Notes under the pieces: model-generated
The model's input: only the letters and a program-made list of their open reading frames with translations
What the model was told of the DNA's origin: nothing
The model's database searches: none
In this document: piece after piece, positions 6,169-63,295 of the stretch
How the letters are laid out: each line of letters starts with the position of its first letter
Numbering within the stretch: the stretch's first letter is position 1
Program-made: the position numbers and the translations under genes
NCBI GenBank assembly: GCA_023666145.1
Contig: JAMPCO010000003.1
Location: forward strand, 3,027-67,026
Direction: 5' to 3'
Source of the DNA: Prevotella sp.
GTDB taxonomy: Bacteria > Bacillota > Clostridia > Christensenellales > UBA1242
DNA: 64,000 nucleotides

Positions 6169-6441
6169 TTAGGCACCATAAACTGCTGTGATAATGTGCG
6201 CCACCGCCGCATCCATTTTGGCTTGGGGAACATTGATGTTAACGGTGGGTGTCGCCAGCGGTTGGGGTTGCGGTAAATTTGTTACCGCCGCCGCAATTTC
6301 AGCATTCGTATTATTCTCAATTTTAGTTAAGCGTTGATAAGTATCTTTTTCAATTTCACGCACTTGCACATTGGCCTTCGCAATGATTTGTTCAGCCTGG
6401 TCTTCGGTGTCATGGAGCGTTTTCAAGATATCGGCTAACAT
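6169..6441 (-). CDS. Small V-ATPase stalk subunit (G/H-like; position of E. hirae NtpF)
   Basis: The ATG at 6441 gives a 90-aa helical protein (MLADILKTLHDTEDQAEQIIAKANVQVREIEKD...). It is the first gene of the operon, and a promoter sits 7 nt upstream. The 157-aa track ORF would extend through that promoter. Confidence 0.7.
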   Translation of the reverse strand: MLADILKTLHDTEDQAEQIIAKANVQVREIEKDTYQRLTKIENNTNAEIAAAVTNLPQPQPLATPTVNINVPQAKMDAAVAHIITAVYGA

Positions 6442-6448
6442 AAGGCTA

Positions 6449-6477
6449 ATTTTAATGGATTGGTCTTTGATTGACAA
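6449..6477 (-). promoter_or_regulatory. sigmaA-type promoter of the V-ATPase operon, positioned for a leaderless transcript
   Basis: On the minus strand: TTGTCA (6477-6472), 17 nt spacer, TAAAAT (6454-6449), 7 nt, then ATG (6441). No Shine-Dalgarno is present. The -35 is part of the quasi-palindrome TTGACAA, which also reads TTGACA on the plus strand. Confidence 0.55.
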
Positions 6478-6512
6478 GCAAATTTTGCCTGCCACCTTTA
6501 TATATATAGAAA

Positions 6513-9002
6513 ATGCAAGACTTTTACGGGTTAACCAGCCAGGAGGTCGAAAGTGCACGTCGTCAACACGGCAGCAATACTTTGACTCCACCCAAAAAGC
6601 GTAGTTTTTGGCAAATCTTGATTGGTAACTTGGGTGACCCAATCATGAAAATCTTAATGATTGTCACGGGCATTAACGTTGCGTGCTTGTTTTATACTCA
6701 CAATTTTTTGGAAACTTTTGGTATTGTGATGTCGATTTGTATTGCGGTCGTGGTCAGTACCCTCAGCGAATTAGGTAGTGAATCCGCGTTCAAAAAATTG
6801 GAAACCATGTCGGGACAAATTGAATCCCGTGTCAAACGCGCGGGCAAAACCGTCTTGTTACCGGCGACACAGATTGTGGCGGGCGACATCGTTTTGCTGG
6901 GCAGTGGGGATAAGATTCCCGCCGACGGCGTCGTAGTGGACGGCACATTGAGCGTCGACCAAAGTATTTTGAACGGCGAAAGTTTGGAATGTCACAAGCA
7001 CGTGGCACGTGACAGTGGCAAAACCGATTTTTTGGCGGCGGGACAATTATTTTCGGGGACGGTGGTCACGGGTGGCAGTGGGGTGATGCAGGTCACGGCG
7101 GTGGGTGACCAAACCGCTTACGGACAAATCGCGCAAGGTTTAACCGAAAGCGCACCGACCAGCCCGTTAAAAGTCAAATTATCCAAACTGGCGAACTTGG
7201 TTTCCGTGATTGGTTACATTGGTGCCGCGATTGCGGCGGTCACGTATTTAATCAGTGTCAGCGGGGGCGGCATTACTTTTCAAGAGATTTTGTCGGCGAT
7301 TACTTTGGTGGTGTCCGTGGTCGTCATGGCGGTTCCTGATGGTTTGCCGATGATGATTACCGTGGTGCTTTCGTCCAATATGCGCGCCATGATGCGCGAC
7401 CAATTATTGGTGCGAAAACTGAGCGCGGTGGAAACGGCGGGCAGTTTGAACATCCTTTTTACCGACAAAACGGGTACCATTACTCAAGGTAAATTAAGCG
7501 TGTGTGGGGTTTTGTTGCCCAACGGACAATATGTGACCCAAGATTTTCGGACGCAGTTGGGTGGGTTTGGACAGTTGTTGGGTACGGCTTTGGTGGTGAA
7601 TAACGAAGCCGAACCGACCGCGCAAGGGTTTATCGGGGGTAACATTACGGATCGGGTGTTGGCCGCGTTCGGGGGCGAATTGTTGAGTGGTGTGCTGCCC
7701 AAGGCCACGAAACAACACGTGGAACCGTTTTCTTCGGCGACCAAATTCATGGCGACCACCACGGCGCAAGGAGATACCTATTATAAAGGGGCGACCGAAG
7801 TGTTGTTGCCGCGTTGTCAGTTGGACGTTTCCGAACGCGCCCTCTTGATGCAGCGGGTGGCTGCGTTAAACCAACAAGCCATGCGCGTAATTTGCGTGAC
7901 CCAAGGCGAGGTGTTGTTGGGCTTTGTCGTGATTCGTGATGCGATTCGTCCCGAAGCCTTGACCAGTATCCAAACTTTACATACCGCCCAAATTCAAGTG
8001 GTGTTGGTGACGGGGGATGCGCGCGATACCGCGGTGGCGGTGGCGCGGGAAGTGGGAATTTTAGACGAAGATGGTTTGGTGTTAACCAGTGAGGAACTTA
8101 ACCGTTTGGACGATGCGGCTTTGGCACAAATTTTGCCACGGTTACGGGTGGTGTCACGGGCATATCCCCAAGACAAAAGTCGGTTGGTACGGGTGGCACA
8201 GTCCTTGAATTTAGTGGTCGGCATGACGGGGGATGGAGTTAACGATGCACCCGCGTTGAAACGTGCCGAGTTAGGTTTTGCGATGGGCAGTGGGACCGAA
8301 GTAGCCAAAGCGGCGGGCGATATCGTGATTATGGACGACAACATTCAATCCATTACCAAAGCGGTTTCGTTTGGACGCACTTTGTTTGAAAGTATCCGCA
8401 AATTTTTGGTTTTCAAATTGACGATTAACTTTATTGCGATGACGATTTGTATCTTGGCACCCTTGTTCGGCATTGCGGCACCGATTACCGTGATCCAAAT
8501 GTTGTGGATTAACTTGGTGATGGATACCTTGGCGGGCTTAGCGTTTGGGGGCGAAAAACCCGCACCGATATATATGCAGCAACCGCCGAAGCGGCGCGAC
8601 GAAAGTTTAATTACCAAAACCATGTGGGGCAAAATTATTTGGGGCAGTGTGTTCGGCAGTTTGATTTGCCTGTGGTTCTTAATTTCGCCGTACATCCAAA
8701 GCATTGTGGGTAACCAACAAGTTTTCGTTACCGTGTTCTTTACTTTCTTTATGTTCCTGAACGTTTGCAACGCATTTAACGCCCGCGCGAACGGCATGAA
8801 CTTACTGCGTGGATTGTTCAAAAACAAAGCGTTCGTCATTATCATGGTGGCGATTGTGTTATCACAATTTGTGATTATCTTTTGGGGTGGGGGTGTCTTT
8901 CGTACCGTGCCAATTGATTGGGGTTACATTATTTTCTCTGGTGTTTTGGCTCTGTCCATGTTGCCCGTCGAAATGTTCCGTCAAGCCATCTTCCGTCGCT
9001 AA
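6513..9002 (+). CDS. P-type Ca2+-transporting ATPase (type IIA, YloB-like)
   Basis: 829 aa with the phosphorylation motif DKTGTITQG and hinge TGDGVNDAPAL. The N-terminus GLTSQEVESARRQHGSNTL is typical. No Shine-Dalgarno is present, and a TATATATATA tract ends 4-6 nt before the ATG. Confidence 0.93.
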   Translation: MQDFYGLTSQEVESARRQHGSNTLTPPKKRSFWQILIGNLGDPIMKILMIVTGINVACLFYTHNFLETFGIVMSICIAVVVSTLSELGSESAFKKLETMSGQIESRVKRAGKTVLLPATQIVAGDIVLLGSGDKIPADGVVVDGTLSVDQSILNGESLECHKHVARDSGKTDFLAAGQLFSGTVVTGGSGVMQVTAVGDQTAYGQIAQGLTESAPTSPLKVKLSKLANLVSVIGYIGAAIAAVTYLISVSGGGITFQEILSAITLVVSVVVMAVPDGLPMMITVVLSSNMRAMMRDQLLVRKLSAVETAGSLNILFTDKTGTITQGKLSVCGVLLPNGQYVTQDFRTQLGGFGQLLGTALVVNNEAEPTAQGFIGGNITDRVLAAFGGELLSGVLPKATKQHVEPFSSATKFMATTTAQGDTYYKGATEVLLPRCQLDVSERALLMQRVAALNQQAMRVICVTQGEVLLGFVVIRDAIRPEALTSIQTLHTAQIQVVLVTGDARDTAVAVAREVGILDEDGLVLTSEELNRLDDAALAQILPRLRVVSRAYPQDKSRLVRVAQSLNLVVGMTGDGVNDAPALKRAELGFAMGSGTEVAKAAGDIVIMDDNIQSITKAVSFGRTLFESIRKFLVFKLTINFIAMTICILAPLFGIAAPITVIQMLWINLVMDTLAGLAFGGEKPAPIYMQQPPKRRDESLITKTMWGKIIWGSVFGSLICLWFLISPYIQSIVGNQQVFVTVFFTFFMFLNVCNAFNARANGMNLLRGLFKNKAFVIIMVAIVLSQFVIIFWGGGVFRTVPIDWGYIIFSGVLALSMLPVEMFRQAIFRR

Positions 9003-9709
9003 ATAATTTGACTTTTGCGCACAAATTTCCAATCGCCACTGGCTAAATTGCCCAAAGTCAATTTGCCTTCTTGCAAACGGATCAGGTGGGTGACTTGCAG
9101 GCCTAAGGTTTCAAACATTTTGCGAATTTGCCGATTGCGTCCTTCGTGGATGATGACTTGGATTTGGGTACGGTCGTGTTGCAGATAGGAAAATTCCGCG
9201 GGTGCCGTTTGGACACCATCGATCTTGACCCCGTGGGATAAAGTTGCTAATTCGGCCTTGGTGACGGGGCGGTTGACCGTAGCGTGATAGATTTTATTGA
9301 CGTGGGTGGACGGATGCGTTAATTGCTTGGTCAAAGCGCCGTCGTTGGTTAGCAGTAGCAAACCACACGTCTGATAATCCAAACGGCCAACGGGGTACAG
9401 GCGCACCGTTTTTAACAGGGTCGCGTATTGCTTGGGATTTTGGCGAATCACGTCCAAAACGGTGGTTCGACCTTGGGGGTCAAAAGTGGTGGTAACCACG
9501 CCCGCGGGTTTGTTCAATAAAATGTAGACTTTGTCGGTCGGGGGTTGGACGGGGCGGTTGTCGACCGTTACGGTCGCATCATCGGGAATGATGGTGGCTA
9601 AATTGGTAATCACCACCCCATTCAAACGGACACGTCCCGCGGTGATCAACGTTTCCACATGGCGGCGGCTGCCGAGTCCACACAAAGCAAGATATTTGTT
9701 TACGCGCAT
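8999..9709 (-). CDS. rluB: Pseudouridine synthase, RsuA/RluB family with S4 domain
   Basis: The ATG at 9709 gives MRVNKYLALCGLGSRRHVETLITAGRVRLNG (S4 domain). The catalytic motif GRLDYQTCGLLLLTNDG is present. The track ORF's upstream extension is hydrophobic junk. Confidence 0.9.
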   Translation of the reverse strand: MRVNKYLALCGLGSRRHVETLITAGRVRLNGVVITNLATIIPDDATVTVDNRPVQPPTDKVYILLNKPAGVVTTTFDPQGRTTVLDVIRQNPKQYATLLKTVRLYPVGRLDYQTCGLLLLTNDGALTKQLTHPSTHVNKIYHATVNRPVTKAELATLSHGVKIDGVQTAPAEFSYLQHDRTQIQVIIHEGRNRQIRKMFETLGLQVTHLIRLQEGKLTLGNLASGDWKFVRKSQII

Positions 9710-9717
9710 CAAAAAAA

Positions 9718-9726
9718 AGTATATCA
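9718..9726 (-). promoter_or_regulatory. Extended -10 promoter of rluB (leaderless-type)
   Basis: The minus strand reads TGaTATACT, then 8 nt (tttttttg), then ATG (9709). No Shine-Dalgarno is present. Confidence 0.45.
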
Positions 9727-10535
9727 TGAAAATGATGAATATCCTAATCGCAAATGTGCGGAATTTAGAGTCACGGGAATTAAAAGTGTTGGCGGGTGAA
9801 CTGGCAAAAAAACACACGGTGACGGTTTGTTCGCTGGAAGGTCCAGGACGCCAAAAGGGTAATGCGTTTTCTTACGGGGGTTTCCCAATTAAGTTCAAAC
9901 AGATTTCCAATTATACGGTTAACGGCGTGCGGATTCCCGCCTATAAATTTGACGGCACACCCGCGGATATGATTTCGGTCATGTTGGGCAACATTATGCA
10001 ACACCGTAAACCGCATTTGGTGATTTGTGGGATTAGCAACGGGATTTCGTTGGGTACCGACGTCTTTTGCTCATCGAACATTGGAATGGCGATGCAAACC
10101 GCTTTCAATAATATCCCGTGTATTGCGGTTGGCGTGCCAATGCAAATCGGGGGACACAGCGAAGCCGAATTGTTACCGGCGGCACAATTCATCGCGAAAA
10201 ACGTGGAAAAATTTGCCAAAGCCAAATTACCGACCGATACGTTCTTGAATATCACGCTTCCGATTGTCAAAAAATACGACGATTACCAAGGTGTTGGCAT
10301 TTCTTCCATGGATAATTTGACCAAGATGACGCGCTATTTGGAAAAAGTGGATTGCAAAGGCAACAAATACTACTGGGCTCAATTGGTTGAACGCGACAGT
10401 TCCCAAAAAGCCACGGTGGCACCGACCGCGGGCATGGCGTATTTCAAAAAGAATTACATCATTATGGCTCCGTTGACCTATAACTGCACCGACGCCGCCC
10501 ATTTGGCAGAAATGCAAAAGGAGGTCGTCAAATGA
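9726..10535 (+). CDS. SurE-like 5'/3'-nucleotidase paralog 1, catalytic DD motif absent
   Basis: SurE fold markers are present: GTPAD, CGISNGISLG, IAVGV. The N-terminus reads MNILIANVRNLE where SurE has NDDG. Three candidate ATGs lie at 9726, 9732 and 9735. The stop overlaps the next gene (ATGA). Confidence 0.8.
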   Translation: MKMMNILIANVRNLESRELKVLAGELAKKHTVTVCSLEGPGRQKGNAFSYGGFPIKFKQISNYTVNGVRIPAYKFDGTPADMISVMLGNIMQHRKPHLVICGISNGISLGTDVFCSSNIGMAMQTAFNNIPCIAVGVPMQIGGHSEAELLPAAQFIAKNVEKFAKAKLPTDTFLNITLPIVKKYDDYQGVGISSMDNLTKMTRYLEKVDCKGNKYYWAQLVERDSSQKATVAPTAGMAYFKKNYIIMAPLTYNCTDAAHLAEMQKEVVK

Positions 10536-11302
10536 AAATTTTATTGACGAACGAAGCGGGTTGCTTCCACCCTGGGATTGTGGCGTTGGCGAAAGAACTT
10601 TGTAAAGACCACCGTGTGTGTATTGTCGCACCGTTGACGCGACAGAGTGGTGCGGGACATTCTTTAACGGTCGACCAACGTCCGTTGCACGCACAACAAT
10701 GGTTTGTGTTGGACAACGTGAAAATGTGGTCGGTAGATGGTACGCCGTGTGATTGTGTTGCGTTGGCGTTGGATAAATTGTTATTAGACAAACCCGATTT
10801 AATCATTACGGGGATTGACCCCATCAATAATCTGGGCAATTTGATTTACAGCAGTGGGGTGGTCGCGGCCGCCATGGAAGGGGCGATTCAAGGCATCAAA
10901 AGTATTGCCATTAGCGCTGCGATTAAAGCGGAAAAGAAAGAACGGGCTTACCGTCATGTGGCGAAGTATGTTGCGCGTAAGTTAGAATTTTTGGTGACCA
11001 AAACACCTGATTACGGGGTCTTGAACGTGAATTTCCCCGACAAAGTGCAACCTAAGAAAGTGATGCCCGCCGCTTTAACGGACGGAATTTTTATCAACGA
11101 ATACGAAATTGAAGTCAATCCGTTTGGCTCGACGTTTGCTTGGGTTAAAAATCCGTTAATGGAATTCGGCTTGGACGCTTACGAACAAAAAGGCGATTTA
11201 TGTTGGTTGAAACAGGGCTACATTACTTTGACGCCCTTGAAATTGGATTTATTAAAAGGCGAGGCTTTAACGGCCTTACAAAAGGCAGGGATTAAATTAT
11301 GA
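10532..11302 (+). CDS. surE: SurE-like 5'/3'-nucleotidase paralog 2, DD motif replaced by EA
   Basis: MKILLTNEAGCFHPGIVALAKEL compares with canonical MRILLSNDDGxxAPGI. APLTRQSGAGHSLT, GTPCDCV and YSSGVVAAAMEG all align to SurE. GGAGG Shine-Dalgarno lies 8 nt upstream. Confidence 0.88.
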   Translation: MKILLTNEAGCFHPGIVALAKELCKDHRVCIVAPLTRQSGAGHSLTVDQRPLHAQQWFVLDNVKMWSVDGTPCDCVALALDKLLLDKPDLIITGIDPINNLGNLIYSSGVVAAAMEGAIQGIKSIAISAAIKAEKKERAYRHVAKYVARKLEFLVTKTPDYGVLNVNFPDKVQPKKVMPAALTDGIFINEYEIEVNPFGSTFAWVKNPLMEFGLDAYEQKGDLCWLKQGYITLTPLKLDLLKGEALTALQKAGIKL

Positions 11303-11961
11303 GTATCAACATTGCGATTGACGGACCCGTCGCCAGCGGAAAAGGGGCGGTCACCAAAGGGTTGTCGGCTAAATTGGGAATTCCCGCATTGGATACGGGT
11401 GCCGCTTACCGTGCGGTCACCTTGTATCTGTTGGAAAATAACATCGATTTGCACGATGAAAAACGGATTTTGATGACCTTGAATAAAATCGAATTGCGTT
11501 TGTACGTCACAGACCACCATGCGGTGCGGGTTTTTACCCAAGGGCAAGATGTGACGCCGCGGATTCGCGACAACCGTGTCAGTGTGGCGGTGCCCACCGT
11601 GGCGGCGTATGTTGGCGTGCGTGATTACGTCAACCGGCAAATTGCGTTGGTGGCAGCGCAAGGTGATTGCATTATGGAAGGGCGTGACATCGGGACGGCG
11701 GTTTTGCCCCAGGCTCAATACAAGTTTTATTTGACCGCTTCGTTGGAAGTGCGTGCCAAACGTCGGAAAGCGGATTTGGATGCCAAGGGCGAACATTTGT
11801 CTTTATTGGAAGTGATGGCGCAAATTAAGCGGCGCGATGAACAGGATATGACCCGCACGGTGGCGCCGTTGAAACAGGCTCCTGATGCCATTTACCTGGA
11901 CAACAGTGATCTGACGTTGGAACAAACCATTGACACAATGGCAAAATACATTAAAATGTAA
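11299..11961 (+). CDS. cmk: Cytidylate kinase
   Basis: IAIDGPVASGKG P-loop and overall Cmk-like sequence. ATGA overlap with the upstream gene. Confidence 0.93.
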   Translation: MSINIAIDGPVASGKGAVTKGLSAKLGIPALDTGAAYRAVTLYLLENNIDLHDEKRILMTLNKIELRLYVTDHHAVRVFTQGQDVTPRIRDNRVSVAVPTVAAYVGVRDYVNRQIALVAAQGDCIMEGRDIGTAVLPQAQYKFYLTASLEVRAKRRKADLDAKGEHLSLLEVMAQIKRRDEQDMTRTVAPLKQAPDAIYLDNSDLTLEQTIDTMAKYIKM

Positions 11962-11964
11962 GTA

Positions 11965-12330
11965 ATGGAAACGATTGTGCACGTGGAAAACGGCGAATAT
12001 TTGGGACAGACACGCTTTGCTAACGATTTGTTACGCGAATCGTTAATGCTGTGCGTGAAAGAAGTGCGTGGTGTGGCGGGGATTGGCAAACATATGCGCA
12101 GTAACAAAAACAAAATTAAAAATTTGAAAATCAGCCGCTGTAAGGACAGTAACCATTTGATCGTCGACATTAACCTGTTGGTGTCAACGGGCTTTTCCGT
12201 GCCTGACGTGGCTTACCGCGTGCAAGAAGCCGTGTTGAATACCGCCACGCAATTTACGAACGATAAAATTGACCAAGTCAATATCTATGTACGGGGCGCA
12301 AAGTATGGGGCAAGCACTAAGCAGAAGTGA
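11965..12330 (+). CDS. Asp23/Gls24 family envelope-stress protein (YqhY-like)
   Basis: 121 aa with Asp23-family features (...VRGVAGI...VDINLLVSTGFSVPDVAYRVQEAV). It lies immediately upstream of nusB, as yqhY does in Bacillus. Confidence 0.85.
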   Translation: METIVHVENGEYLGQTRFANDLLRESLMLCVKEVRGVAGIGKHMRSNKNKIKNLKISRCKDSNHLIVDINLLVSTGFSVPDVAYRVQEAVLNTATQFTNDKIDQVNIYVRGAKYGASTKQK

Positions 12331-12706
12331 GTCCCGCGAAGTTGCTTTCCGTTTGATTTTTGCCATGGGACAGCAGACGGTTTGGGATGCGGACGCGTGG
12401 AATTTGGCGTTGGACGGTAAAACGGCACCGACACCCGAACAACAATACATCACCAAAATTGTGGAAAAGTTTACCGAACTACGAACGGAGATTGATGCCA
12501 AGATTAGTGCGCATTTGCAGAAATGGACGTTGGATCGTTTGCGCCAAACCGACTTAGCCGCGTTACGTTTAGCGGCGACCGAAATGGCGTTGGGAACTGT
12601 CCCTGTACCAGTGATCATTAACGAAGCGGTCAGTTTAGCCAAAAAATACGGGGAGGCATCCAGCGGTGCGTTCGTGAACGGGGTGTTAGCACAACTGGCG
12701 GAGTAG
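12305..12706 (+). CDS. nusB: Transcription antitermination factor NusB
   Basis: The ATG at 12305 gives MGQALSRSESREVAFRLIFAM...AALRLAATEM...INEAVSLAKKYG, which is NusB-like. The start is uncertain (track TTG at 12269). Confidence 0.88.
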   Translation: MGQALSRSESREVAFRLIFAMGQQTVWDADAWNLALDGKTAPTPEQQYITKIVEKFTELRTEIDAKISAHLQKWTLDRLRQTDLAALRLAATEMALGTVPVPVIINEAVSLAKKYGEASSGAFVNGVLAQLAE

Positions 12707-12707
12707 C

Positions 12708-13706
12708 ATGGAACTATCGGTTACACAATTAAACAATTACATTAAATCGGTGTTTGTCGCCGAAGAAATGTTGCACAACATCCTTTTGAACGGAGAAGCG
12801 TCGGGCGTGTCGGTACGTGGCAACGGCGTATGGTTTACTTTGCGTGACCGCGAAGCGGCGATCCCGTGTGTTTGTTGGGAAAAAGCCCGTTGTGCGGTGA
12901 AGGACGGTGACCAAGTCACTTTACGCGGCACGGTCGATTATTGGCAGAAGGCGGGTAAAATCAATTTTAACGTCCATGCTTTGGTCAAGACGGGGGCGGG
13001 CGCATTGTTAGAACAGTTACAAGCCTTGACCGAAAAATTGCAGCGCGAAGGTTTATTTGACCGCAAAAAAGCGTTACCCAGTCAAGTTAAACGTATCGGG
13101 GTGGTCAGTTCCCGTTACGGTGCGGTGATTCATGATATTATGACGGTGACTAAACGGCGCAACCCGTTGGTGGATATTGTGTTATATCCTGCCGCGGTGC
13201 AGGGGGAAAACGCCGCCCGTGAAATTTGTGCAGGCGTGGCATATTTCAACCGTACCCAAACGGTTGATTTAATCATTGTGGCACGGGGTGGTGGTTCCAA
13301 CGAAGACCTGTCGTGCTTTAACACCGAAGATGTCGCCCGTGCCGTGGCAGGCAGTACTTTGCCGATTGTGGCCGCGGTCGGACACGAGACCGATTTTACT
13401 TTGGTGGATTACGTGGCGGATTTACGGGCCCCGACGCCCTCTGCCGCCGCCGAAATGGTGATTCCCGAATTGGTCTCACAAAAAGATGTGGTGCTGCGCT
13501 TGTGGTCACAAATGAAGTACAGTATTACCAGTCGTTTGCAACAATTACGCACCCAAGCGTTGGGCTTTTTGCATTTATTCCCGCAGGACTTTGTTGCGGT
13601 GGCGAAAGACGGGCAAGTGGTCAAAAGCGTCCGCGATCTAAAACCCAAAGACAAATTGCAAATTTGTTTTAATGATGGTAGAATTGGAGTAACAGTCGAT
13701 GAATAA
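12708..13706 (+). CDS. xseA: Exodeoxyribonuclease VII large subunit (compact, 332 aa)
   Basis: N-terminal OB fold (LSVTQLNNYIKSVF...GEASGVSVRGNGVWFTLRD) and catalytic core (RIGVVSSRYGAVIHDI, ARGGGSNEDL). Confidence 0.92.
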   Translation: MELSVTQLNNYIKSVFVAEEMLHNILLNGEASGVSVRGNGVWFTLRDREAAIPCVCWEKARCAVKDGDQVTLRGTVDYWQKAGKINFNVHALVKTGAGALLEQLQALTEKLQREGLFDRKKALPSQVKRIGVVSSRYGAVIHDIMTVTKRRNPLVDIVLYPAAVQGENAAREICAGVAYFNRTQTVDLIIVARGGGSNEDLSCFNTEDVARAVAGSTLPIVAAVGHETDFTLVDYVADLRAPTPSAAAEMVIPELVSQKDVVLRLWSQMKYSITSRLQQLRTQALGFLHLFPQDFVAVAKDGQVVKSVRDLKPKDKLQICFNDGRIGVTVDE

Positions 13707-13887
13707 AACCATTGCGGAATTAGAAAAATTAACCCAATCCATTCAGGCGGAAAAACGGATTGACCAAGCCTTGGATAGTTTTATCAGTGGCGCTGAATTG
13801 GTTAAAACGGTCTTAAAGGAATTGGACCAAGCCGAAGGCAAGGTGTACGCAGTCGTTAACGACGTGGAACAACTGTTGGAGGAATAA
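13699..13887 (+). CDS. xseB: Exodeoxyribonuclease VII small subunit
   Basis: 62-aa helical protein that overlaps the xseA stop. Typical XseB size and position. Confidence 0.88.
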   Translation: MNKTIAELEKLTQSIQAEKRIDQALDSFISGAELVKTVLKELDQAEGKVYAVVNDVEQLLEE

Positions 13888-16489: not shown

Positions 16490-16495
16490 GTGCTC

Positions 16496-16525: not shown

Positions 16526-16545
16526 GAATTGTTGCAAATAATAAC

Positions 16546-16574: not shown

Positions 16575-16581
16575 TATCAAC

Positions 16582-24819: not shown

Positions 24820-24827
24820 AAGTATTT

Positions 24828-46460: not shown

Positions 46461-46464
46461 GACC

Positions 46465-53612: not shown

Positions 53613-54741
53613 GGCTATCCTCCATGGGGCGTTGACGAATAGGGTTGCGGTTGGGAATACTGCGCGGGCGTTCAATCATTTCGGGGAAGGGAACTTTTTG
53701 CAACGCATCTTTTTGGTCATCGGGGATGTACGGAGTAAATGGTGCTAAATAGGGTGAACCGTAGTGATCAATGCCTGCGGTGTAAACCAACAAGACGACG
53801 AAAGCCGCTACCAAACCGTACAAGCCTAAGAAACCACCAATTAAACAAAAAATGAAACGCAGGACACTGATTTGGGCCAACATATTCGGCATGATGTAGG
53901 AAGTGATACCCGAAATGGCCACGACCAAAACCGTGGGGGCGGAAAGCAATCCTACCGAAGCCGCCACTTCACCCACCACAAACACCGCAATGATACTGGT
54001 CGCTGAACCGAGATGTTTAGGCATGATTAACGTCGCTTCGTAAATGATTTCGAAAAGCAGAAGGACGATAATCATTTCGATAATCGGTGGAAATAAATCG
54101 TTTTCGGTGGAGTTCGCAATCGTGGCTAAAGTGTTCAACGGGATAATTGACAAATGGTATAAACTGACCGCTAAGAAAAAACCAGGCAGCAAGACCGCAA
54201 TCAACCCACCCAACAGGCGGATGGTGCGTTTCATTGTGACGCCTGCATTACCGCTGTAATAATCATTGCTGTTTTGGATGTTTTCCAAAAACAAATGCGG
54301 AATGGTCAACACGACGGGGCTGCCGTCCACAAAAATGGCCACGCGCCCTTCCAGCAGTCGGGATGCTACGATATCGGGTTTTTCTTCGGAAGCGGCGGCT
54401 TTGTACAAGGCAATGCGGTCAGGATTCAAACATTCACTGATGTAGGAAGAATCGATAATCCCGTCGCAATCAATTTTTTTTAAGCGCGCTAAAACGGATT
54501 GCACCACGGCCGGCGTCGCAATGCTGTCAATGTAAGCCAGTTGCACTTTGGTTTGGGTGTATTTGCCAATCGTTAAAGTTACAAATTGCAAATCCTGGTT
54601 TTTAATGCGTTTGGTGATTAAAGCCACATTGGTATCAATATTTTCCACAAAACCTTCGCGTGGACCCAAGAGCACTTGACCAGTGGGTGGTTCAGTTAAA
54701 CCACGTTGTGGTGGTTGCTGCGGTTGGTTTGGTGCTGCCAT
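53605..54741 (-). CDS. Spore germination protein, GerAA-type subunit (N-terminally short)
   Basis: GPREGFVENIDTNVALITKRIK..., KPDIVASRLLEGRVAIFVDGSPVVLTIP and DYY, followed by 5 TM helices, match the GerA family. I prefer the start at 54741 (MAAPNQ), because the ATG at 54792 would overlap the divergent lysK start. Confidence 0.82.
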   Translation of the reverse strand: MAAPNQPQQPPQRGLTEPPTGQVLLGPREGFVENIDTNVALITKRIKNQDLQFVTLTIGKYTQTKVQLAYIDSIATPAVVQSVLARLKKIDCDGIIDSSYISECLNPDRIALYKAAASEEKPDIVASRLLEGRVAIFVDGSPVVLTIPHLFLENIQNSNDYYSGNAGVTMKRTIRLLGGLIAVLLPGFFLAVSLYHLSIIPLNTLATIANSTENDLFPPIIEMIIVLLLFEIIYEATLIMPKHLGSATSIIAVFVVGEVAASVGLLSAPTVLVVAISGITSYIMPNMLAQISVLRFIFCLIGGFLGLYGLVAAFVVLLVYTAGIDHYGSPYLAPFTPYIPDDQKDALQKVPFPEMIERPRSIPNRNPIRQRPMEDSHE

Positions 54742-54752
54742 ACGGATATTAT

Positions 54753-54781
54753 TTGCATTTTCACAAAAAAAATTATATATT
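54753..54781 (+). promoter_or_regulatory. sigmaA-type promoter of class-I lysyl-tRNA synthetase gene (leaderless-type)
   Basis: TTGCAT (54753-54758), 17 nt spacer, TATATT (54776-54781), 5 nt, then ATG (54787). There is no room for a T-box leader. Confidence 0.6.
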
Positions 54782-54786
54782 GCATC

Positions 54787-56355
54787 ATGCATTGGAGTTA
54801 TGAATTAGCCGCCGCAATATTGCAAAAATATCCTGACCGTGAAGAATACGTGGTTGCCAGTGGTATTTCCCCGTCGGGCAGTGTGCACATCGGTAACTAC
54901 CGTGAATTTGTGACACAGTATTACGTGGCGAAGGCTTTGCAAAGTATGGGCAAAAAAGTGCGTGAAATTTTTTCTTGGGACGAATTTGACCGTTTTCGTA
55001 AAGTACCCAAAAATTTCCCTGTCGCTTACGCGGTGCACGTGGGAAAACCCTATGTCGATATTCCGTCGCCGTTTAGTGCGGGCGAAAGCAGTGCTAAATA
55101 TTTTGAACGGGAATTTGAAGGTGCCTTGCAAAAATTGGGCATGAACGAAATTCCCGTGCAGATGATTTACCAAGCCGACGAATACCGTAGCGGTCGTTAC
55201 GGGGTGGCGATTGCCGAAGCCATAAAAAAACGTCAACAAATTTATGACATTATCATGTCGTTCAAAACTCAGGACGGGGACGAAGGCGACCGCGCAAATT
55301 ATTATCCGATTACGATTTATTGTCCTATTTGTGGCAAAGACGATACCCAGGTTTTAAGTTTTGATGCCAAGACCGATGTGCTGACTTACCAATGTCGTTG
55401 CGGACACCAACACAGCGTGGACGTTAAAACCGCTAATAACATCAAATTGGTTTGGAAAGTGGACTGGCCGATGCGTTGGAAAGCCGAAAACGTCTGCTTT
55501 GAAGCCGCGGGGATTGACCACCACAGTGAGGGGGGCAGTTATGACGTCAGTTCACGCATCGCCCGTGAAATTTGGGGCATTGAACCGCCCGTGTCGACTT
55601 GCTATGCGTGGGTCGGCATTCGCGGTGTCGGTAATATGCACAGTAGTACGGGCATCAACATTACACCGAACCAGTTATTGCAAGTTTATGAACCCGAAAT
55701 TCTGCGTTACTTGTACGCGAAGTATCCTGTGGGTGACGCTTTCGATTTTGGTTACGATGATACGATTATTCGCCACTACATGGAATTTGACCGCAATTTA
55801 GAAAAGTATTTGGCGCACGACCCCAGTTTGCCTGAATACGACAAAGTTGTTTACGATTTGTGTTTATTCCCCAAAAGTCAGGGTAACCGTGTCAGTTTCA
55901 GTACTTTGGCGACCGTGGCACCGTTGACCGGTTTCAACCAAGCCTTAACTCTCAAAATGTTAAAGCAGGCTGGCATTACCGCACTGGGCAATTTTGAATC
56001 CCGTTTCGCAAAAGTCAAATATTGGCTGGAAAATTATCAACCCGACCGTATTTACCATTTGTTACCCACGTTTAACCAAGCGTACTACCATACTTTAGAT
56101 GACACCCAAAAGGCCGTCTTGCAACAGTTAGCGGCATTTTTAACCACACCCCACACGGAAAGCGAAATCCAAACTTACTTGTACCAAATCATCAATGATC
56201 CCAATTTGTCCAAAAAAGAAAACCAACAGCGACAACAAGTTTATTTCAAAATCTTTTACAATATGCTGTTTGGGCGCGATGCTGGCCCGCGTTTGTACTT
56301 ATATTTAGCCGTGGCAAATCCGCAAGATTACTTGAAACTCTTGCAAGAAAAATAA
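54787..56355 (+). CDS. lysK: Lysyl-tRNA synthetase, class I (archaeal-type)
   Basis: ASGISPSGSVHIGNYREF (the HIGH-region variant typical of class I LysRS). Size and overall pattern fit class I LysRS. The KMSKS-equivalent region reads GNMHSSTG. Confidence 0.88.
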   Translation: MHWSYELAAAILQKYPDREEYVVASGISPSGSVHIGNYREFVTQYYVAKALQSMGKKVREIFSWDEFDRFRKVPKNFPVAYAVHVGKPYVDIPSPFSAGESSAKYFEREFEGALQKLGMNEIPVQMIYQADEYRSGRYGVAIAEAIKKRQQIYDIIMSFKTQDGDEGDRANYYPITIYCPICGKDDTQVLSFDAKTDVLTYQCRCGHQHSVDVKTANNIKLVWKVDWPMRWKAENVCFEAAGIDHHSEGGSYDVSSRIAREIWGIEPPVSTCYAWVGIRGVGNMHSSTGINITPNQLLQVYEPEILRYLYAKYPVGDAFDFGYDDTIIRHYMEFDRNLEKYLAHDPSLPEYDKVVYDLCLFPKSQGNRVSFSTLATVAPLTGFNQALTLKMLKQAGITALGNFESRFAKVKYWLENYQPDRIYHLLPTFNQAYYHTLDDTQKAVLQQLAAFLTTPHTESEIQTYLYQIINDPNLSKKENQQRQQVYFKIFYNMLFGRDAGPRLYLYLAVANPQDYLKLLQEK

Positions 56356-56369
56356 TTATTGATTATAAT
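56341..56369 (+). promoter_or_regulatory. sigmaA-type promoter for the 181-aa hypothetical gene (leaderless-type)
   Basis: TTGCAA (56341-56346, inside the lysK 3' end), 17 nt spacer, TATAAT (56364-56369), 8 nt, then ATG (56378). Confidence 0.55.
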
Positions 56370-56377
56370 AAAGTATT

Positions 56378-56923
56378 ATGAACAATAAAGAAGTGCGCAA
56401 ATATGATTTAGTGGTACAAATCGGTAACCAAGGTGGTGCGTTGGCAATTAAAGAATTGGCCACCATTGATTTTAATTTGGCGGTCGATATGTGGGAATAC
56501 AAATTACTGAAAGATATCAATGCGTTTGCGGGGGATGATATTTTTGAAATTTTGGAAAACGTTTCCGAAAGTAAATTGCGCGCGGCGGTGTTGGGTAATT
56601 CCGCTTTATTAAAATTGATTTATGGTGCCAGCGAAGACAGTTGCAGTGGTGCCAATTTACAATTCTTGGCGTCTTTGATTGTGGCATCCAAAATTAACGA
56701 AGCCGAAGAAATTTTGAAAATGGTGAAAAATAATGGGACGGGTGATTTTACCGAACGGATGCGTGCCGTTGTCGATGCGGTTTTTGCGTTATCCATGGGC
56801 AAGACTGGCACGAAGAAAGCCACATTGAACCACAAACAAACCATTTTGTTGTTTGACTTTGTGTCGAAAATGAAAACGGGCACAACGAAAAATTTGTTAA
56901 CGCAACGCTTAAAAGAATTGTAA
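56378..56923 (+). CDS. Hypothetical all-helical cytoplasmic protein
   Basis: 181 aa with no TM helix and no recognisable motif. Its stop directly abuts the mnmG stop (convergent, 0 nt gap). Confidence 0.6.
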   Translation: MNNKEVRKYDLVVQIGNQGGALAIKELATIDFNLAVDMWEYKLLKDINAFAGDDIFEILENVSESKLRAAVLGNSALLKLIYGASEDSCSGANLQFLASLIVASKINEAEEILKMVKNNGTGDFTERMRAVVDAVFALSMGKTGTKKATLNHKQTILLFDFVSKMKTGTTKNLLTQRLKEL

Positions 56924-58696: not shown

Positions 58697-59974
58697 CTAT
58701 TTCCCCAAACAAAATTTGGCGAAAATTTCATCCAAAGTCCGTTCGTCAACGTTGGTCCCCGTAATTTTGCCAATGTAACTTAACGCCAAAGTAATGTTGG
58801 CGGCAATTTGATCCAAAGGGGCTTGGGTGTCAATTGTTGTGAGTAATCGGTATGCTTGCGTCAACAGGTTGGCTTGGCGTTCGTTTGTTACACAAACCAA
58901 GTTGCTGATGGGCGTGGTACGGGTGGCCAGTTCCACGATTTTGGGTAAAATCAACGCCACATTTTTACCAGTTTTCGCGGAAACCGCGATGCCGTCCGTG
59001 GGTATGTCAGAACAAAGGTCACATTTGTTATAAACAATGATGTGTTTTTTGTCACGCGGGAAATCGACCATGACACGGGTAGTAGCGTCGACCACGACCA
59101 ACAAGATATCTGCTTCTTGTAAGATGGCTTTGGCACGGGCAATGCCTTGCTGTTCAATGACTGATGTGGCGGTGTCGTGAATACCCGCCGTATCGATGAA
59201 ATTGATTTTGATGCCTTGGTAGGTAATTTTTTCCGTAATCGCGTCGGTCGTGGTGCCTGCAATGTCGGTTACAATGCTGCGGTTGTTACCAATTAACGCG
59301 TTGAACAGGCTGCTTTTCCCCGCGTTGGGACAACCAATTAAACAAACGTTAATCCCGTTTTTAATGATTTGCCCGTGGTCGGCCGTCGCCAGCAGTTGGG
59401 CAATGGTGTCTTTCGCACGGTTGATTGGTGCCATGGGAACATCTGGTGATACCAAATCTTCGGGATAATCCAAGTAAGCGTCAATTTGGGCGCGCGCATC
59501 AATTAGATCGTTTTCCACCGTGGACATTAAAGTCTGCAATTCACCTGCCATGAGGCGCGCGGCATTTTGCAATTCGGCATCGGATTCGGCATGAATTAAG
59601 TCCAAAGTGCTTTCGGCTTGACTTAACGTCATTTTATTGTTTAACACGGCCAGGCGGGTGAATTCGCCTGGTTCCGCGGGGGTTGCCCCGTGTTGAACCG
59701 CGGTCTGCATGATCCGGTTGATTAAATGCCACCCGCCGTGGGCTTGAATTTCGACGACATCTTCGCCCGTAAAACTGTGTGGGGCAGGGAAATAAAGGGC
59801 AATGACCGTGTCGGTAAAATTTTTACCGCGGAGTAGCCCTAACGTCGCGTGGCGCGGTTGCAACGGGCGATCAAACATTTGGGCAGTAATCGACAGCGCG
59901 TTTGCCCCCGAAAGCCGCACAATACCCACTCCGCCAAAGCCAACTGGTGTCGCAATCCCAACAATGGTTTTCAT
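58697..59974 (-). CDS. mnmE: tRNA modification GTPase MnmE (TrmE)
   Basis: N-terminus TIVGIATPVGFGGVGIVRLSG, G-domain GCPNAGKSSLFNAL and DTAG, and the C-terminal FCLGK motif. Confidence 0.96.
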   Translation of the reverse strand: MKTIVGIATPVGFGGVGIVRLSGANALSITAQMFDRPLQPRHATLGLLRGKNFTDTVIALYFPAPHSFTGEDVVEIQAHGGWHLINRIMQTAVQHGATPAEPGEFTRLAVLNNKMTLSQAESTLDLIHAESDAELQNAARLMAGELQTLMSTVENDLIDARAQIDAYLDYPEDLVSPDVPMAPINRAKDTIAQLLATADHGQIIKNGINVCLIGCPNAGKSSLFNALIGNNRSIVTDIAGTTTDAITEKITYQGIKINFIDTAGIHDTATSVIEQQGIARAKAILQEADILLVVVDATTRVMVDFPRDKKHIIVYNKCDLCSDIPTDGIAVSAKTGKNVALILPKIVELATRTTPISNLVCVTNERQANLLTQAYRLLTTIDTQAPLDQIAANITLALSYIGKITGTNVDERTLDEIFAKFCLGK

Positions 59975-60225
59975 GATTGATCAATCATAGCATTAAATTC
60001 CAAAATATCAAAGGGGATACTTTCGATAAAGTCGCGTTGTTTTAATTTCAAAAGGTTAAAAGCCAAAAAATTATCAATTTGGGATTGGGTAATTATGGGC
60101 GTCGGAATTTTCAGTGCGGCGGCGATTTGCGTGACGCCATCGTAAAAATGGTCGGGGTCAAGCGGCACCACGACACTGCGTTTGACTTTATGGTCAATGA
60201 TAATTTTGGCCCAGACATTAATCAT
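59971..60225 (-). CDS. Hypothetical 84-aa protein, first gene of the mnmE-mnmG operon
   Basis: ATGA overlap with the mnmE start. Its promoter lies 8 nt upstream. I recognised no family. It occupies the position usually held by jag/yidC genes. Confidence 0.6.
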   Translation of the reverse strand: MINVWAKIIIDHKVKRSVVVPLDPDHFYDGVTQIAAALKIPTPIITQSQIDNFLAFNLLKLKQRDFIESIPFDILEFNAMIDQS

Positions 60226-60233
60226 TTGGTTTC

Positions 60234-60262
60234 ATTATAATCCTTTCAGTGGGGTTCGGCAA
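60234..60262 (-). promoter_or_regulatory. sigmaA-type promoter of the 84aa-mnmE-mnmG operon (leaderless-type)
   Basis: Minus strand: TTGCCG (60262-60257), 17 nt spacer, TATAAT (60239-60234), 8 nt, then ATG (60225). Confidence 0.6.
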
Positions 60263-60286: not shown

Positions 60287-60315
60287 TTGCGCAAACGGGG
60301 TGTTACAGGTATCAT
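60287..60315 (+). promoter_or_regulatory. sigmaA-type promoter of the GT2 gene (leaderless-type)
   Basis: TTGCGC (60287-60292), 17 nt spacer, TATCAT (60310-60315), 6 nt, then ATG (60322). Confidence 0.5.
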
Positions 60316-60321
60316 ATACGT

Positions 60322-61260
60322 ATGGGGAAAATTTCTTTATTGTTGCCAGTCTATAATGAACAAGTTATTTTGCGCGATGTGTTGGCGAAATACATTGCCG
60401 ATTTAGAAAATTTGCGTTTGAAAATGCAATACCAATGGGAAATTATTGCGGTCGATGATTGCAGTGATGATGAGTCGCGGTTGATTATGTTAGATTTTGC
60501 CCGCCGTCATCATAATTTCCGCATTGTCACGTTGGCACAGCGTTCGGGCAAACATACGGCGGTCACCGCGGGGTTAAGTGTGGCGTCGGGTGATTTAGTT
60601 TTGATTGCCGAAATCAGTTTGCAAAACCCTATGGGCTTGTTGGAAAACATGGTTAAAGAACATTTGGCCAGTGGTGCACAGATTATTTATGGCTACCGCC
60701 AGTTTAATGGTTGGCGCCGCCGTAAAGCCTTAATCACCGACCGTTTAACCCGTTTGGCGTGTAAATTGTTTGTCTTGGACGGTTATTTTACGGGGATTGT
60801 GAACGCCGAATTGTACACCGCCGATGTGGCTGCGGTGTTACGTGACAATCCGTCCAAAACGAAATATATGCGTTCGATGAATAACTGGGTTGGTTGGAAA
60901 ACGCAAGAATATTGGTACGCCAGTGAATATACTGACACCGAAGCCAAAATTAAAATGGAACAATTACGCGCCCGTACCCACCGACATACCCGTTTCAAAA
61001 AGAGTGGTCATGTTGCGCCTGTCAACATTTGGTGGGGCATTTTGTATTTGGTGGTTGCGGCGGCGGCTTTTATCTTGGGCGGCACTTTGCTGACGGTGGC
61101 ACACCCAGGTGTGATTGGCACGATATTTACGGTGGGTTCCGCGGGGATTGTGTTAGCCTTGTTGTCCTTTTTGCGCGCTTTGTTATTGGAACACATTGGC
61201 AAAATCAGTTACCGCGCGGGCGAAGTGGTTTATGAGATTAAATCAATCATCAATCGTTAA
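60322..61260 (+). CDS. Family-2 glycosyltransferase, GtrB/polyprenyl-phosphate glycosyltransferase-like, 2 C-terminal TM helices
   Basis: ISLLLPVYNE and IIAVDDCSDDES match the family, and the C-terminal membrane hairpin is as in GtrB. The DxD region reads IAEISLQNP where GtrB has IDVDLQDP. Confidence 0.85.
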   Translation: MGKISLLLPVYNEQVILRDVLAKYIADLENLRLKMQYQWEIIAVDDCSDDESRLIMLDFARRHHNFRIVTLAQRSGKHTAVTAGLSVASGDLVLIAEISLQNPMGLLENMVKEHLASGAQIIYGYRQFNGWRRRKALITDRLTRLACKLFVLDGYFTGIVNAELYTADVAAVLRDNPSKTKYMRSMNNWVGWKTQEYWYASEYTDTEAKIKMEQLRARTHRHTRFKKSGHVAPVNIWWGILYLVVAAAAFILGGTLLTVAHPGVIGTIFTVGSAGIVLALLSFLRALLLEHIGKISYRAGEVVYEIKSIINR

Positions 61261-61284: not shown

Positions 61285-62289
61285 ATGAGAATTGGCATCA
61301 ATGGTTTTGGACGGATTGGGCGTTTAATGTTGCGCAACACCTTACAACGCAAGGATGCGACCGTGGTCGCGGTGAACGACCCGTTCGTCACTTTGGATTA
61401 TGCCGCGTATTTGCTGACTTATGATACCGTACACGGCCAATTAAATGCCGACATCAAAGTTGACGACGCGCAAAAGGCTTTAATCATTAACGGGCAGACC
61501 GTTAAATTTTATACTGAAAAAGAACCCATCAATATTCCGTGGGGTAAAAATCGGGTGGATGTGGTGATAGAAGCCACGGGGGTTTTTTTAACCAGTGAAA
61601 AATGCCAAGCCCACTTGGACGCTGGCGCTGGGAAAGTCATTATCACCGCACCCGCGAAAGACCAAGTTACCCCGACTTATGTGATGGGGGTTAACGAAAA
61701 AACTTACCAACCAACCCAGCGTATCATTTCCAACGCTTCGTGTACCACCAATTGCCTGGCACCGTTGTGTAAAGTGATTCACGGCCGTTTTGGTATTGAA
61801 AACGGTTTGATGACCACAGTGCACGCGGTGACCGCGACCCAAAATACCGTGGACGGCGCCAGCGCGAAAAATTGGCGTTTGGGACGTGCGGCGTATCACA
61901 ACATGATTCCGTCAACCACGGGAGCCGCCAAAGCGGTGGGGTTGGTCATCCCCGACTTAGCAGGTAAATTAACGGGAACCAGTTTGCGCGTGCCAGTGGA
62001 TAATGTTTCCGTGGTGGATTTGACCTGCACTTTGCAAAAAGCGGCTTCGCAAGCGGAAATCTGTGCCGCCTTAAAAGATGCCAGCGAACACGAATTGAAA
62101 GGCATCTTGCAATACACCGAAGTACCCGTAGTTTCCAGTGACATTATTGGCAATCCGCACACCGCGGTCTTTGATGCCAAAGCCAGTGTTTTTTTAAACG
62201 ACCATTTCGTGAAATTGTTGGCATGGTACGACAACGAATGGGGCTACAGCGTAAAAACCGTCGACTTGGCGGTGCATATTGGCAAATAA
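61285..62289 (+). CDS. gap: Glyceraldehyde-3-phosphate dehydrogenase
   Basis: INGFGRIGR, active site [12 protein letters not shown], and [14 protein letters not shown] Shine-Dalgarno 9 nt upstream. Confidence 0.98.
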
Positions 62290-62318
62290 TTGACTGTCGA
62301 TAAAAATCAAAGTACACT
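62290..62318 (+). promoter_or_regulatory. sigmaA-type promoter upstream of the DUF1963 gene
   Basis: TTGACT (62290-62295), 17 nt spacer, TACACT (62313-62318), 5 nt, then GTG (62324). The first ATG is at 62336. Confidence 0.45.
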
Positions 62319-62323
62319 TTGCT

Positions 62324-63295
62324 GTGAACAAACAAATGAAGTTTTTTCGCAAAACTGCGATGATTTCACTGATATTGGGTATGGGATTTTTATTACTCTG
62401 TGTCGTTGCGTCAAGTGCATCGGATGGTTCTGATTTAGTTGCAATGATTCAGTTATTCAGTTTGATTTTCGGGTTGGTTTTAATTACTTTATCGGTTGAG
62501 TCTTGGAAAAAATATCGTCAAGCATGGAAACAAAACGGGAAAGCAATTTCAGATGAACGCCACGTTGCTAAAAAATTTCCTAAATGGGTACAACGGTTTG
62601 AACACCTGACTAAAACCGCCGCTAAACTTGTACGGTCCAATGAAAATAGGCAAATATTTTCTAAATTTGGTGGTTTGCCTCAGGTGCCTGCTGATTTCAA
62701 ATGGCCAACTTGTAACAACGAACCAGTTCCGTTTTTGTTACAACTTGATTTTGCGGAAATCAATGTCAATGGGCAGTTAAAAAATTTCCCCACATCGGGA
62801 TTGTTGTATGTATTTGTTGAAGAAGATGCTACCGAAGATTATCATAACCTGAAAATTTTATTTTTTGAACCAACAGAAAATCTAGCATTGGCGCATCAAC
62901 CGCAGAATTTATCTACCATTTTCCGAGAAATTTATGTTGCTCCTGAACTGATTAAAACCTATCCTGCTGTTGAGGATTGTGCCGAAGCCACCCAAATTTG
63001 TGATACTGAATCAGACAAAAATCTGCATCGTGCTTATGATGTGTTGTGTTGGAAAAACATGGACAGTCATTTGGTCGGTGGTTGGGCAAGTTATGTTCAA
63101 GAGGGTTGGTTTATGCGGGAGCAAGACAATCCCAGTGACTGGGTGTTACTGTGTCAAATTGCTAGTGAATGTTCAACCAATGGGGAAGGTGACTTCATGT
63201 GGGGGGATGCGGGAACAATTTACATTTATATCCGTGAAAAAGACCTCATAGCGCGCAATTTTGACAACGTTAAGTTAGATATGCAATGCGGTTAA
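62324..63295 (+). CDS. DUF1963 (YwqG-like) domain protein with two N-terminal TM helices
   Basis: FGGLPQVPADFKWP...PVPFLLQLDF and WGDAGTIYIYI match the DUF1963 pattern. The N-terminus has two hydrophobic helices. The start is either GTG at 62324 or ATG at 62336. Confidence 0.8.
   Translation: MNKQMKFFRKTAMISLILGMGFLLLCVVASSASDGSDLVAMIQLFSLIFGLVLITLSVESWKKYRQAWKQNGKAISDERHVAKKFPKWVQRFEHLTKTAAKLVRSNENRQIFSKFGGLPQVPADFKWPTCNNEPVPFLLQLDFAEINVNGQLKNFPTSGLLYVFVEEDATEDYHNLKILFFEPTENLALAHQPQNLSTIFREIYVAPELIKTYPAVEDCAEATQICDTESDKNLHRAYDVLCWKNMDSHLVGGWASYVQEGWFMREQDNPSDWVLLCQIASECSTNGEGDFMWGDAGTIYIYIREKDLIARNFDNVKLDMQCG

Follow-up and report, generated by a model that had tools for sequence, protein, structure and literature searches.

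The window analyzed here is a 64-kb stretch of contig JAMPCO010000003.1, with a GC content of 47% and about 53 genes. Its coding density is about 97% (noted on positions 433–63295). The genes include a V-type ATPase operon, a P-type ATPase gene, rluB, two copies of surE, cmk, nusB, xseAB, recN, corA, uvrB, an RND transporter gene, an ABC-F gene, secA, spoIIE, recR, comEC, holA, addAB, gerA, the gene of a class-I lysyl-tRNA synthetase (lysK), mnmEG, and gap. At the first genes of most transcription units in the window, a sigma-A-type promoter is positioned directly on the start codon, and no Shine-Dalgarno (SD) sequence is present. This arrangement, called leaderless-type below, is the subject of this report. 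The genome looks very compact, with promoters often embedded in neighboring genes. The promoters of asp23, the gene at 56378, and mnmE are located inside the preceding gene, which is cmk, lysK, and an 84-amino-acid gene, respectively. The start codons of divergent genes are 25–145 bp apart, and three pairs are separated by 92–96 bp. This close spacing and the high coding density leave hardly any space for other promoters and leaders. No tRNA gene is found in the window, and an Rfam scan of its 64 kb for long regulatory leaders, which would be counter-examples, gave zero matches.

Proteins identical to those of the window (MCM1404022–MCM1404063, locus tags NC133_) are deposited as "Prevotella sp.", and one related assembly, L002, is labeled "uncultured Prevotella sp.". 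The SecA of the window is 79–92% identical to those of five uncultured "Clostridia bacterium" assemblies (L001, L002, L081, L082, and L084). Beyond these five, it is at most 53% identical to any other SecA, and the next matches are from Christensenellales- or Oscillospirales-type genomes. The close relatives share approximately 65–77% DNA identity with the window. Relatives are present in gut assemblies, among them those from giraffe. The presence of SpoIIE and GerA indicates that the organism is a spore-former. Since the gene content (SpoIIE, GerA, and AddAB) and the affinities of SecA are clostridial, the name Prevotella is wrong, and the labels of both the metagenome-assembled genome of the window and L002 look like taxonomic mis-assignments. 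An earlier annotation made from the letters of the window without database searches, here called the sequence-only reading, had placed its argument in the Firmicutes, and this framing is therefore right. A metagenome scan for sequences that bridge the gap of SecA identity between 79% and 53% found no intermediates and just three further close relatives.

The sequence-only reading had quoted promoter strings ending at the start codon for about 18 genes. All 18 strings are present in the window, once each and on the strand given for them, and the ATG at the end of each begins an open reading frame (ORF) of 84–1465 amino acids. Every entry of that list is valid, but the list is an undercount: surE1, asp23, mnmE, a weak case at gerA, and possibly a GTG start at 62324 can be added. 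Among 22 leaderless-type genes, the distance from the -10 box to the start codon (d) is 4–10 nt, with both mean and median at 7. The canonical transcription start would thus coincide with the A of the ATG or be adjacent to it. In an alignment of the 22 cases by their -10 boxes, the -35 position at 17 bp is occupied by T, T, and G in 19, 18, and 14 sequences, respectively. A TG-extended -10 is seen in 6 of them (rluB, ABC-F, spoIIE, recR, addB, and mnmE). The A at position 2 and the T at position 6 of the -10 box are present in 22/22, but both had been required by the search. The TTG at 17 bp and the TG extensions indicate that these are real promoter architectures, not mere AT-rich DNA. Apart from the doubtful GTG at 62324, all 22 starts are ATG, which leaderless mRNAs strongly favor as AUG.

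A generic promoter scan alone was uninformative; in positions 1–20000 it detected 34 sites against 25.2 ± 4.8 in shuffled sequences. As it returned too many low-score matches, a distance-profile test with the same criteria was adopted. In this test the start codons were not picked by motif. All sigma-70-like sites on both strands of the window were collected, namely those that match the hexamers at 10 or more of 12 positions with a 16–18-bp spacer, and those with a TG-extended -10 of at least 5 of 6 matches. For each site, d was measured to any ATG that begins an ORF of 100 amino acids or longer. Of 45 sites, 13 have an ATG at d = 4–9, none at d = 0–3, and seven at d = 10–60. The Poisson probability of the peak at d = 4–9 is about 6e-12. 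The same peak is seen in L001 and L002. The 78 loci of other Clostridia (1.36 Mb) lack a peak at d = 4–9 and have a broad hump at 24–50 nt instead, as leadered mRNAs would give. The pattern is thereby confirmed as real and far beyond chance.

The two kinds of gene starts are divided by genomic context. Hand curation of 51 genes of the window, in which the classes involve judgement, gave 21 leaderless-type genes and two weak or doubtful ones, 17 genes with a clear SD, seven with a weak SD (in one case behind a short leader), and four with neither signal (the amidase gene, comEC, uvrB, and the P-type ATPase gene). Divergent genes are leaderless-type in 14 of 16 cases and SD-led in none. Co-directional genes with an upstream gap of more than 30 nt include six leaderless-type and four SD-led genes. 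For internal genes, with no more than 30 nt between them and the gene upstream, the relation is reversed: 20/25 have an SD and 3/25 are leaderless-type. When divergent genes and genes behind gaps over 30 nt are pooled, 20/26 are leaderless-type versus 3/25 of internal genes (Fisher p = 3.5e-6). The SD-led genes carry sequences such as AGGAGG, AAGGAGGT, and GGAGGTGA. AAGGAG, AGGAGGT, or GGAGG precedes gap, the Cys-rich gene, ntpK, mnmG, surE2, and ABC2, as had been stated for these six and for internal genes in general.

The claim that nearly every first gene has a promoter on its start codon and no SD has a few exceptions. The Cys-rich gene, the 31817 gene, and the gene at 28531 (DUF6273) are first genes with an SD, and their leaders are minimal, at about 13–18 nt, and contain little beyond the SD. 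The P-type ATPase gene at 6513 and the amidase gene show neither signal. The sequence-level checks that the sequence-only reading had proposed all support it: in the window the -10 box is locked 4–10 nt upstream of the start, and the -10 and SD signals are split by operon position.

The arrangement is shared by the close relatives and absent from more distant genomes. A strict automated signature is found in 14/49 genes of the window (28.6%) and in 11/35 genes of five close-relative loci (31%). In 155 loci of other Clostridia it is found in 33/1688 genes (2.0%). Controls matched for GC content (25–50% GC) show it in 23/473 genes (4.9%; p = 8e-7 for the window), which is under the rate that they themselves reach at leadered distances. 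The clearest example is secA. TATAAT or TATACT is located exactly 6 nt upstream of the ATG in the window and in all five close relatives, and all six genes carry TTGTGG at 17 bp. The six bases between the -10 box and the ATG vary: GGGGGT, GATGGT, GTGTTT, GTATGC, GGTTGT, and GTTGTT. All 25 outgroup secA genes inspected have GGAGG, AAGGAG, or GAGGT about 5–12 nt upstream of the same N-terminus, and their promoters, where visible, lie further upstream. The arrangement is also conserved in relatives at recR (TGnTATATT, d = 5–6), spoIIE, ABC1, ABC-F, and the U32 peptidase gene, whose L002 orthologue has TATACT-7-ATG. Judging from these comparisons, the leaderless-type arrangement appears as a lineage-level trait, conserved within the lineage and absent in the outgroups.

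Three outgroup loci with SecA about 52–53% identical to that of the window (L004, L007, and L021) have a 5-mer SD in 2/11, 2/18, and 3/16 genes, respectively. No leaderless signature is found in these three loci, and their secA genes carry only 4-mers of the GGAG or GAGG type. SD usage may be weaker in this clade.

The best explanation for these observations, and one that is very probably correct, is that the first genes are expressed from sigma-A promoters as leaderless mRNAs, which corresponds to the "group C" architecture of GeneMarkS-2. The housekeeping sigma-A RNA polymerase would start transcription at the A of the AUG, or 1–3 nt before it, for the first gene of most units. The first cistron would then have neither a 5' untranslated region (UTR) nor an SD. 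Its 5'-terminal AUG would be directly recognized by the 70S ribosome, or by the 30S subunit with formylmethionyl-tRNA and initiation factor 2, while the downstream cistrons of the same operons would use ordinary SD-led initiation. Direct recognition of a 5'-terminal AUG in either of these ways is an established pathway for leaderless mRNAs.

It can also be considered that the transcripts have leaders and come from promoters further upstream, and that the TATAAT-like boxes are A/U-rich, SD-independent landing sites for the ribosome, of the S1 type or of the "group B" type. SD-independent initiation at A/U-rich sites exists in other phyla (PMC5397173; group B, PMC6028130), and the P-type ATPase gene at 6513 has an AT-rich upstream sequence with no canonical -10 box or SD. 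The NCBI label "Prevotella sp." would also fit, but it conflicts with the clostridial affinities of SpoIIE, GerA, and SecA. Bacteroidetes of group B resemble the window in that their first genes lack an SD. However, their motif precedes all genes, including internal ones, in genomes without SD, and neither feature fits here: internal genes have a strong AGGAGG, and only first genes have the -10-like motif, which is accompanied there by a -35 box or a TG extension. These elements belong to promoters, not to ribosome-binding sites. In addition, divergent starts at a spacing of 25–96 bp leave no space for further promoters and leaders. Landing sites of this kind are thus improbable.

Another explanation is that the start codons are mis-assigned, and that the true starts are downstream in-frame codons with an SD, the leaders being included in the called coding sequences. 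In spoIIE a downstream GTG (39268) is preceded by GGTGA, in the U32 gene a scan found a GGTGA match 13 nt upstream of a downstream GTG (46312), and the start of the NCBI protein differs in 4 of 13 genes. Against this, the other nine NCBI proteins begin exactly at the proposed ATG (secA, lysK, recR, rluB, corA, the surface protein gene, spoIIE, the 84-amino-acid gene, and gerA). Profile hidden Markov models align from the first residues: the S4 domain of RluB from 1–41 to 1–42 of the profile, LysK from 1–358 to 1–356, AddB (ADDB_N) from residue 9 to profile position 9, and RecR from residue 7 to position 1. The SurE domain starts two residues after the ATG at 9735. The SecA N-terminus, MGL(F/I/L) or similar, is common to all 28 secA genes inspected, from the window and 27 other genomes. 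The orthologues in L001 and L002 begin at the homologous ATG. For ABC-F, an in-frame ATG at 29749 falls within the -10 box; the L002 orthologue begins with MIQ directly after TGnTATAAT-8, and the ATG at 29758 is favored for this reason. Within the first 100 or so codons, an in-frame start preceded by an SD is missing from most leaderless-type genes. Systematic mis-assignment is accordingly very unlikely. The statement of the sequence-only reading that the pattern fixes start codons agrees with the Pfam anchoring, the nine NCBI proteins, and the ABC-F orthologue. The longest possible ORFs are corrected by it for lysK, corA, rluB, spoIIE, the surface protein gene, ABC-F, and addB.

Chance, that is, AT-rich intergenic TAnnnT sequences near starts picked with flexible spacing, could draw on the modest excess of the generic scan over shuffled sequences and on the degeneracy of several -10 boxes (TATGGT, TATGCT, and TATCAT), but it is effectively refuted already by the distance profile and the controls, with the peak at d = 4–9, the TTG exactly at 17 bp, the 4.9% versus 28.6% under identical processing of GC-matched Clostridia, and the retention of -10 boxes and spacing while adjacent bases diverge.

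Several points weigh against leaderless mRNAs as the explanation. The name leaderless is itself deduced from promoter geometry, and so are the positions of the 5' ends and the ribosomal route described above. In 9 of the 22 cases d is 8–10, and these transcripts may bear leaders of 1–4 nt instead of none. The promoters of gerA, mnmE, and GT2 (TATCAT) are weak, and rluB, spoIIE, and ABC-F have no good -35 box. The four genes for which NCBI chose different starts are the 90-amino-acid gene, surE1, ABC-F, and addB. The curation of the window was done by hand, though the automated version points in the same direction. The sample is the 64-kb window and 57 kb from relatives, less than a whole genome.

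The individual gene starts are described here along the window, with the spacer length between the -35 and -10 boxes and the distance to the start codon given as numbers. The first gene of the V-ATPase operon (90 amino acids, ATG at 6441) has TTGTCA-17-TAAAAT-7-ATG at 6439–6477 on the minus strand. The P-type ATPase gene, whose N-terminal domain is aligned from the ATG at 6513, lacks both an SD and a canonical -10 box. A TATATATATA run is located 4–13 nt upstream of this ATG, with TTGACA about 22 nt before the run (6468–6515). The AT run adjoins the -35 box of the divergent V-ATPase promoter, just upstream.

The start codons of rluB and surE1 are 25 bp apart (9699–9745). rluB (ATG at 9709, minus strand) has TGaTATACT-8-ATG at 9707–9745, and surE1 (ATG at 9735, plus strand) has TTTACG-17-TATCAT-7-ATG at 9699–9737. 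The two -10 boxes, TATACT at 9718–9723 and TATCAT at 9722–9727, lie on opposite strands and overlap, and the -35 region of each gene lies within the coding sequence of the other. surE1 is the first of two tandem paralogues for SurE, a 5'/3'-nucleotidase (9735–11302, plus strand); the second has a strong AAGGAGGT SD. The promoter of asp23 (ATG at 11965) is TTGACA-16-TAAAAT-7-ATG at 11930–11967 on the plus strand, in the 3' end of cmk.

corA (ATG at 16489) has TTGACT-18-TACAAT-6-ATG at 16487–16525 on the minus strand, and the gene of a 1465-amino-acid surface protein (ATG at 16582) has TTGCTA-17-TATAAT-7-ATG at 16546–16584 on the plus strand. The latter, which is among the best leaderless-type promoters, belongs to a gene at 16582–20979 whose 3' end is overlapped by a 124-amino-acid ORF; the surface protein has no match in Pfam. 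Four further promoters are seen on the plus strand: TGGACA-17-TATATT-8-ATG at 23331–23370 for nfeD (ATG at 23368), TTGACA-17-CATAAT-8-ATG at 24791–24830 for the RND transporter (ATG at 24828), TTGTCA-17-TATGGT-8-ATG at 27952–27991 for a 163-amino-acid gene (ATG at 27989), and TGcTATAAT-7-ATG at 29722–29760 for ABC-F (ATG at 29758).

Two of the SD-led first genes provide a contrast. The DUF6273 gene (28477–28533, plus strand) has TTGACT-18-TATCAT followed by 24 nt with AAGGGG and the ATG at 28531, which gives an expected leader of about 18 nt. The Cys-rich gene of 87 amino acids (31871–32134, minus strand) has TATGCT and a minimal leader of about 16 nt with AGGAGGT before the ATG at 32134 (32134–32170). 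It is located between the amidase gene and the 31817 gene, and its strong SD precedes a protein of extreme Cys, Glu, and Lys content with CxC and CxxC repeats. The amidase ORF (32193–32978, minus strand) has no ATG in its first 70 or so codons. Its plausible starts are TTG at 32855 and GTG at 32843, ahead of a transmembrane segment, with no SD and no -10 box at leaderless spacing. The promoter of ABC transporter 1 (ATG at 32898), TTGCTA-17-TATATT-8-ATG at 32861–32900 (plus strand), is located on the opposite strand in the 42-bp gap that precedes the TTG at 32855; its hexamers and spacing are identical in L002.

The promoter of secA (ATG at 38996) is TTGTGG-17-TATAAT-6-ATG at 38994–39031 on the minus strand. 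spoIIE (ATG at 39142) has TGtCATAAT-6-ATG at 39107–39144 on the plus strand. Three GACA boxes (TTTGACA, TGCGACA, and TTGACAG) are located upstream of its extended -10 box at 39071–39107 and are conserved in L001. They look similar to Spo0A boxes (TTCGACA), which also occur at the spoIIE promoter of B. subtilis. Promoters for sporulation sigma factors were considered for spoIIE and gerA and not adopted; the box of spoIIE is a sigma-A-type extended -10, and gerA stays weak. recR (ATG at 41462) has TTTGCG-17-TGcTATATT-5-ATG at 41428–41464 on the plus strand, conserved in L001 and L002. Its -35 box is at the extreme 3' end of spoIIE and overlaps the spoIIE stop codon, which ends at 41427–41428. 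The U32 peptidase gene (ATG at 46372) is the loosest case, with TTGCCG-17-TAAAAT-10-ATG at 46370–46411 on the minus strand and an expected leader of about 3–4 nt. addB (ATG at 46465) has TTGCGA-17-TGgTATGCT-4-ATG at 46432–46467 on the plus strand.

The weak case of gerA (ATG at 54741) is AATAAT-6-ATG at 54739–54776 on the minus strand, and lysK (ATG at 54787) has TTGCAT-17-TATATT-5-ATG at 54753–54789 on the plus strand. The 3' end of lysK is overlapped by the promoter of a 181-amino-acid gene (ATG at 56378), TTGCAA-17-TATAAT-8-ATG at 56341–56380 on the plus strand. On the minus strand, the 84-amino-acid first gene of the mnmE–mnmG operon (ATG at 60225) has TTGCCG-17-TATAAT-8-ATG at 60223–60262. 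This gene and mnmE overlap by 4 nt, and a candidate internal promoter for mnmE (ATG at 59974), TTGATA-16-TGcTATGAT-9-ATG at 59972–60011, sits in it. The GT2 glycosyltransferase gene (ATG at 60322) has TTGCGC-17-TATCAT-6-ATG at 60287–60324 on the plus strand. The uncertain case is TTGACT-17-TACACT-5-GTG at 62290–62326 on the plus strand. Its GTG at 62324 could start an unusual GTG-initiated leaderless mRNA; otherwise, the next in-frame ATG at 62336 would be used behind an SD-less leader of about 10 nt.

In group C genomes the Pribnow box is located 6–8 nt from the start of first genes, and the remaining genes have a ribosome-binding site (PMC6028130). This architecture is assigned to 90% of Actinobacteria, 97% of Deinococcus-Thermus, and 3.4% (36/1064) of Firmicutes (PMC6028130). 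The window resembles group C members such as Mycobacterium tuberculosis, Streptomyces, and Deinococcus deserti in the fixed short distance of the -10 box, the AUG starts, the SD on internal genes (the dual start model), the large share of operons affected, and the sharing by relatives. It differs in its host, a spore-forming member of Clostridia with about 47% GC, not of Actinobacteria or Deinococcus. It also differs in the promoters: high-GC genomes show a bare TAnnnT, and here the -10 box either is TG-extended or comes with a complete TTGnnn -35 box at 17 bp. Among first genes of the window, the apparent share affected (20/26, as read from promoter geometry) exceeds the 25–50% reported for group C. 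In archaea of group D, first genes likewise lack an SD and have a promoter element whose distance to the start codon is fixed, but this is a TATA box about 26 nt upstream and the polymerase is different.

Within Firmicutes, Zheng et al. (2011) found 4.2% leaderless genes on average, with a maximum of 16.6%, in the genomes that have any (56/209), and these genes are concentrated in Lactobacillales and Mycoplasma (PMC3160421). Lactococcus and Streptococcus, Oenococcus and Leuconostoc, and Mycoplasma belong to the same phylum as the host and show a low-GC TAtAAT, often TG-extended, directly upstream of the start (PMC3160421). They are Bacilli and Mollicutes, not Clostridia, and their percentages are below the approximately 29% (strict automated) and 43% (curated) of the window. 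In Clostridia with mapped transcription start sites (TSSs), 5' UTRs peak near 30 nt and 0.4–4% of transcripts are leaderless: 6/1646 TSSs in C. difficile, about 4% in C. phytofermentans, and 2–3% in solventogenic clostridia. These species share the class, the sigma-A consensus, and the AGGAGG of SD-led genes with the window. Their 5' UTRs near 30 nt agree with the controls used here, whereas the lineage of the window has the promoter on the start codon. With the 36/1064 of group C, these TSS maps, and the 2–5% of the present controls, the sequence-only reading was right to call the pattern atypical for Firmicutes. A literature search on leaderless initiation in Christensenellales or Bacillota by those names found nothing relevant.

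The underlying mechanism is not new. The group C architecture is already known and is modeled by annotation software. What is unusual here, though not unprecedented, is the lineage that has it and how far it extends. Gene callers that assume an SD will misplace starts in this lineage. If most operons probably lack a 5' UTR, they could carry no upstream riboswitches, T-boxes, attenuators, or target sites of small RNAs. Pervasive leaderless initiation would have arisen within Clostridia, and pairs of orthologues, SD-led in the outgroups and promoter-on-ATG here, can be used for studying the transition. It can be speculated, with slightly less than even confidence, that almost every transcription unit of an isolated, uncultured, spore-forming lineage of gut Clostridia has become leaderless in an independent conversion, at around 75–85% of first genes, with the SD kept on internal genes. 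Such a level would be above that of mycobacteria and close to archaeal levels. If true, the lineage would be a natural experiment on an SD-led bacterium turning leaderless, as secA here and its SD-led orthologues exemplify, in which genome compaction and the loss of 5' UTRs go together.

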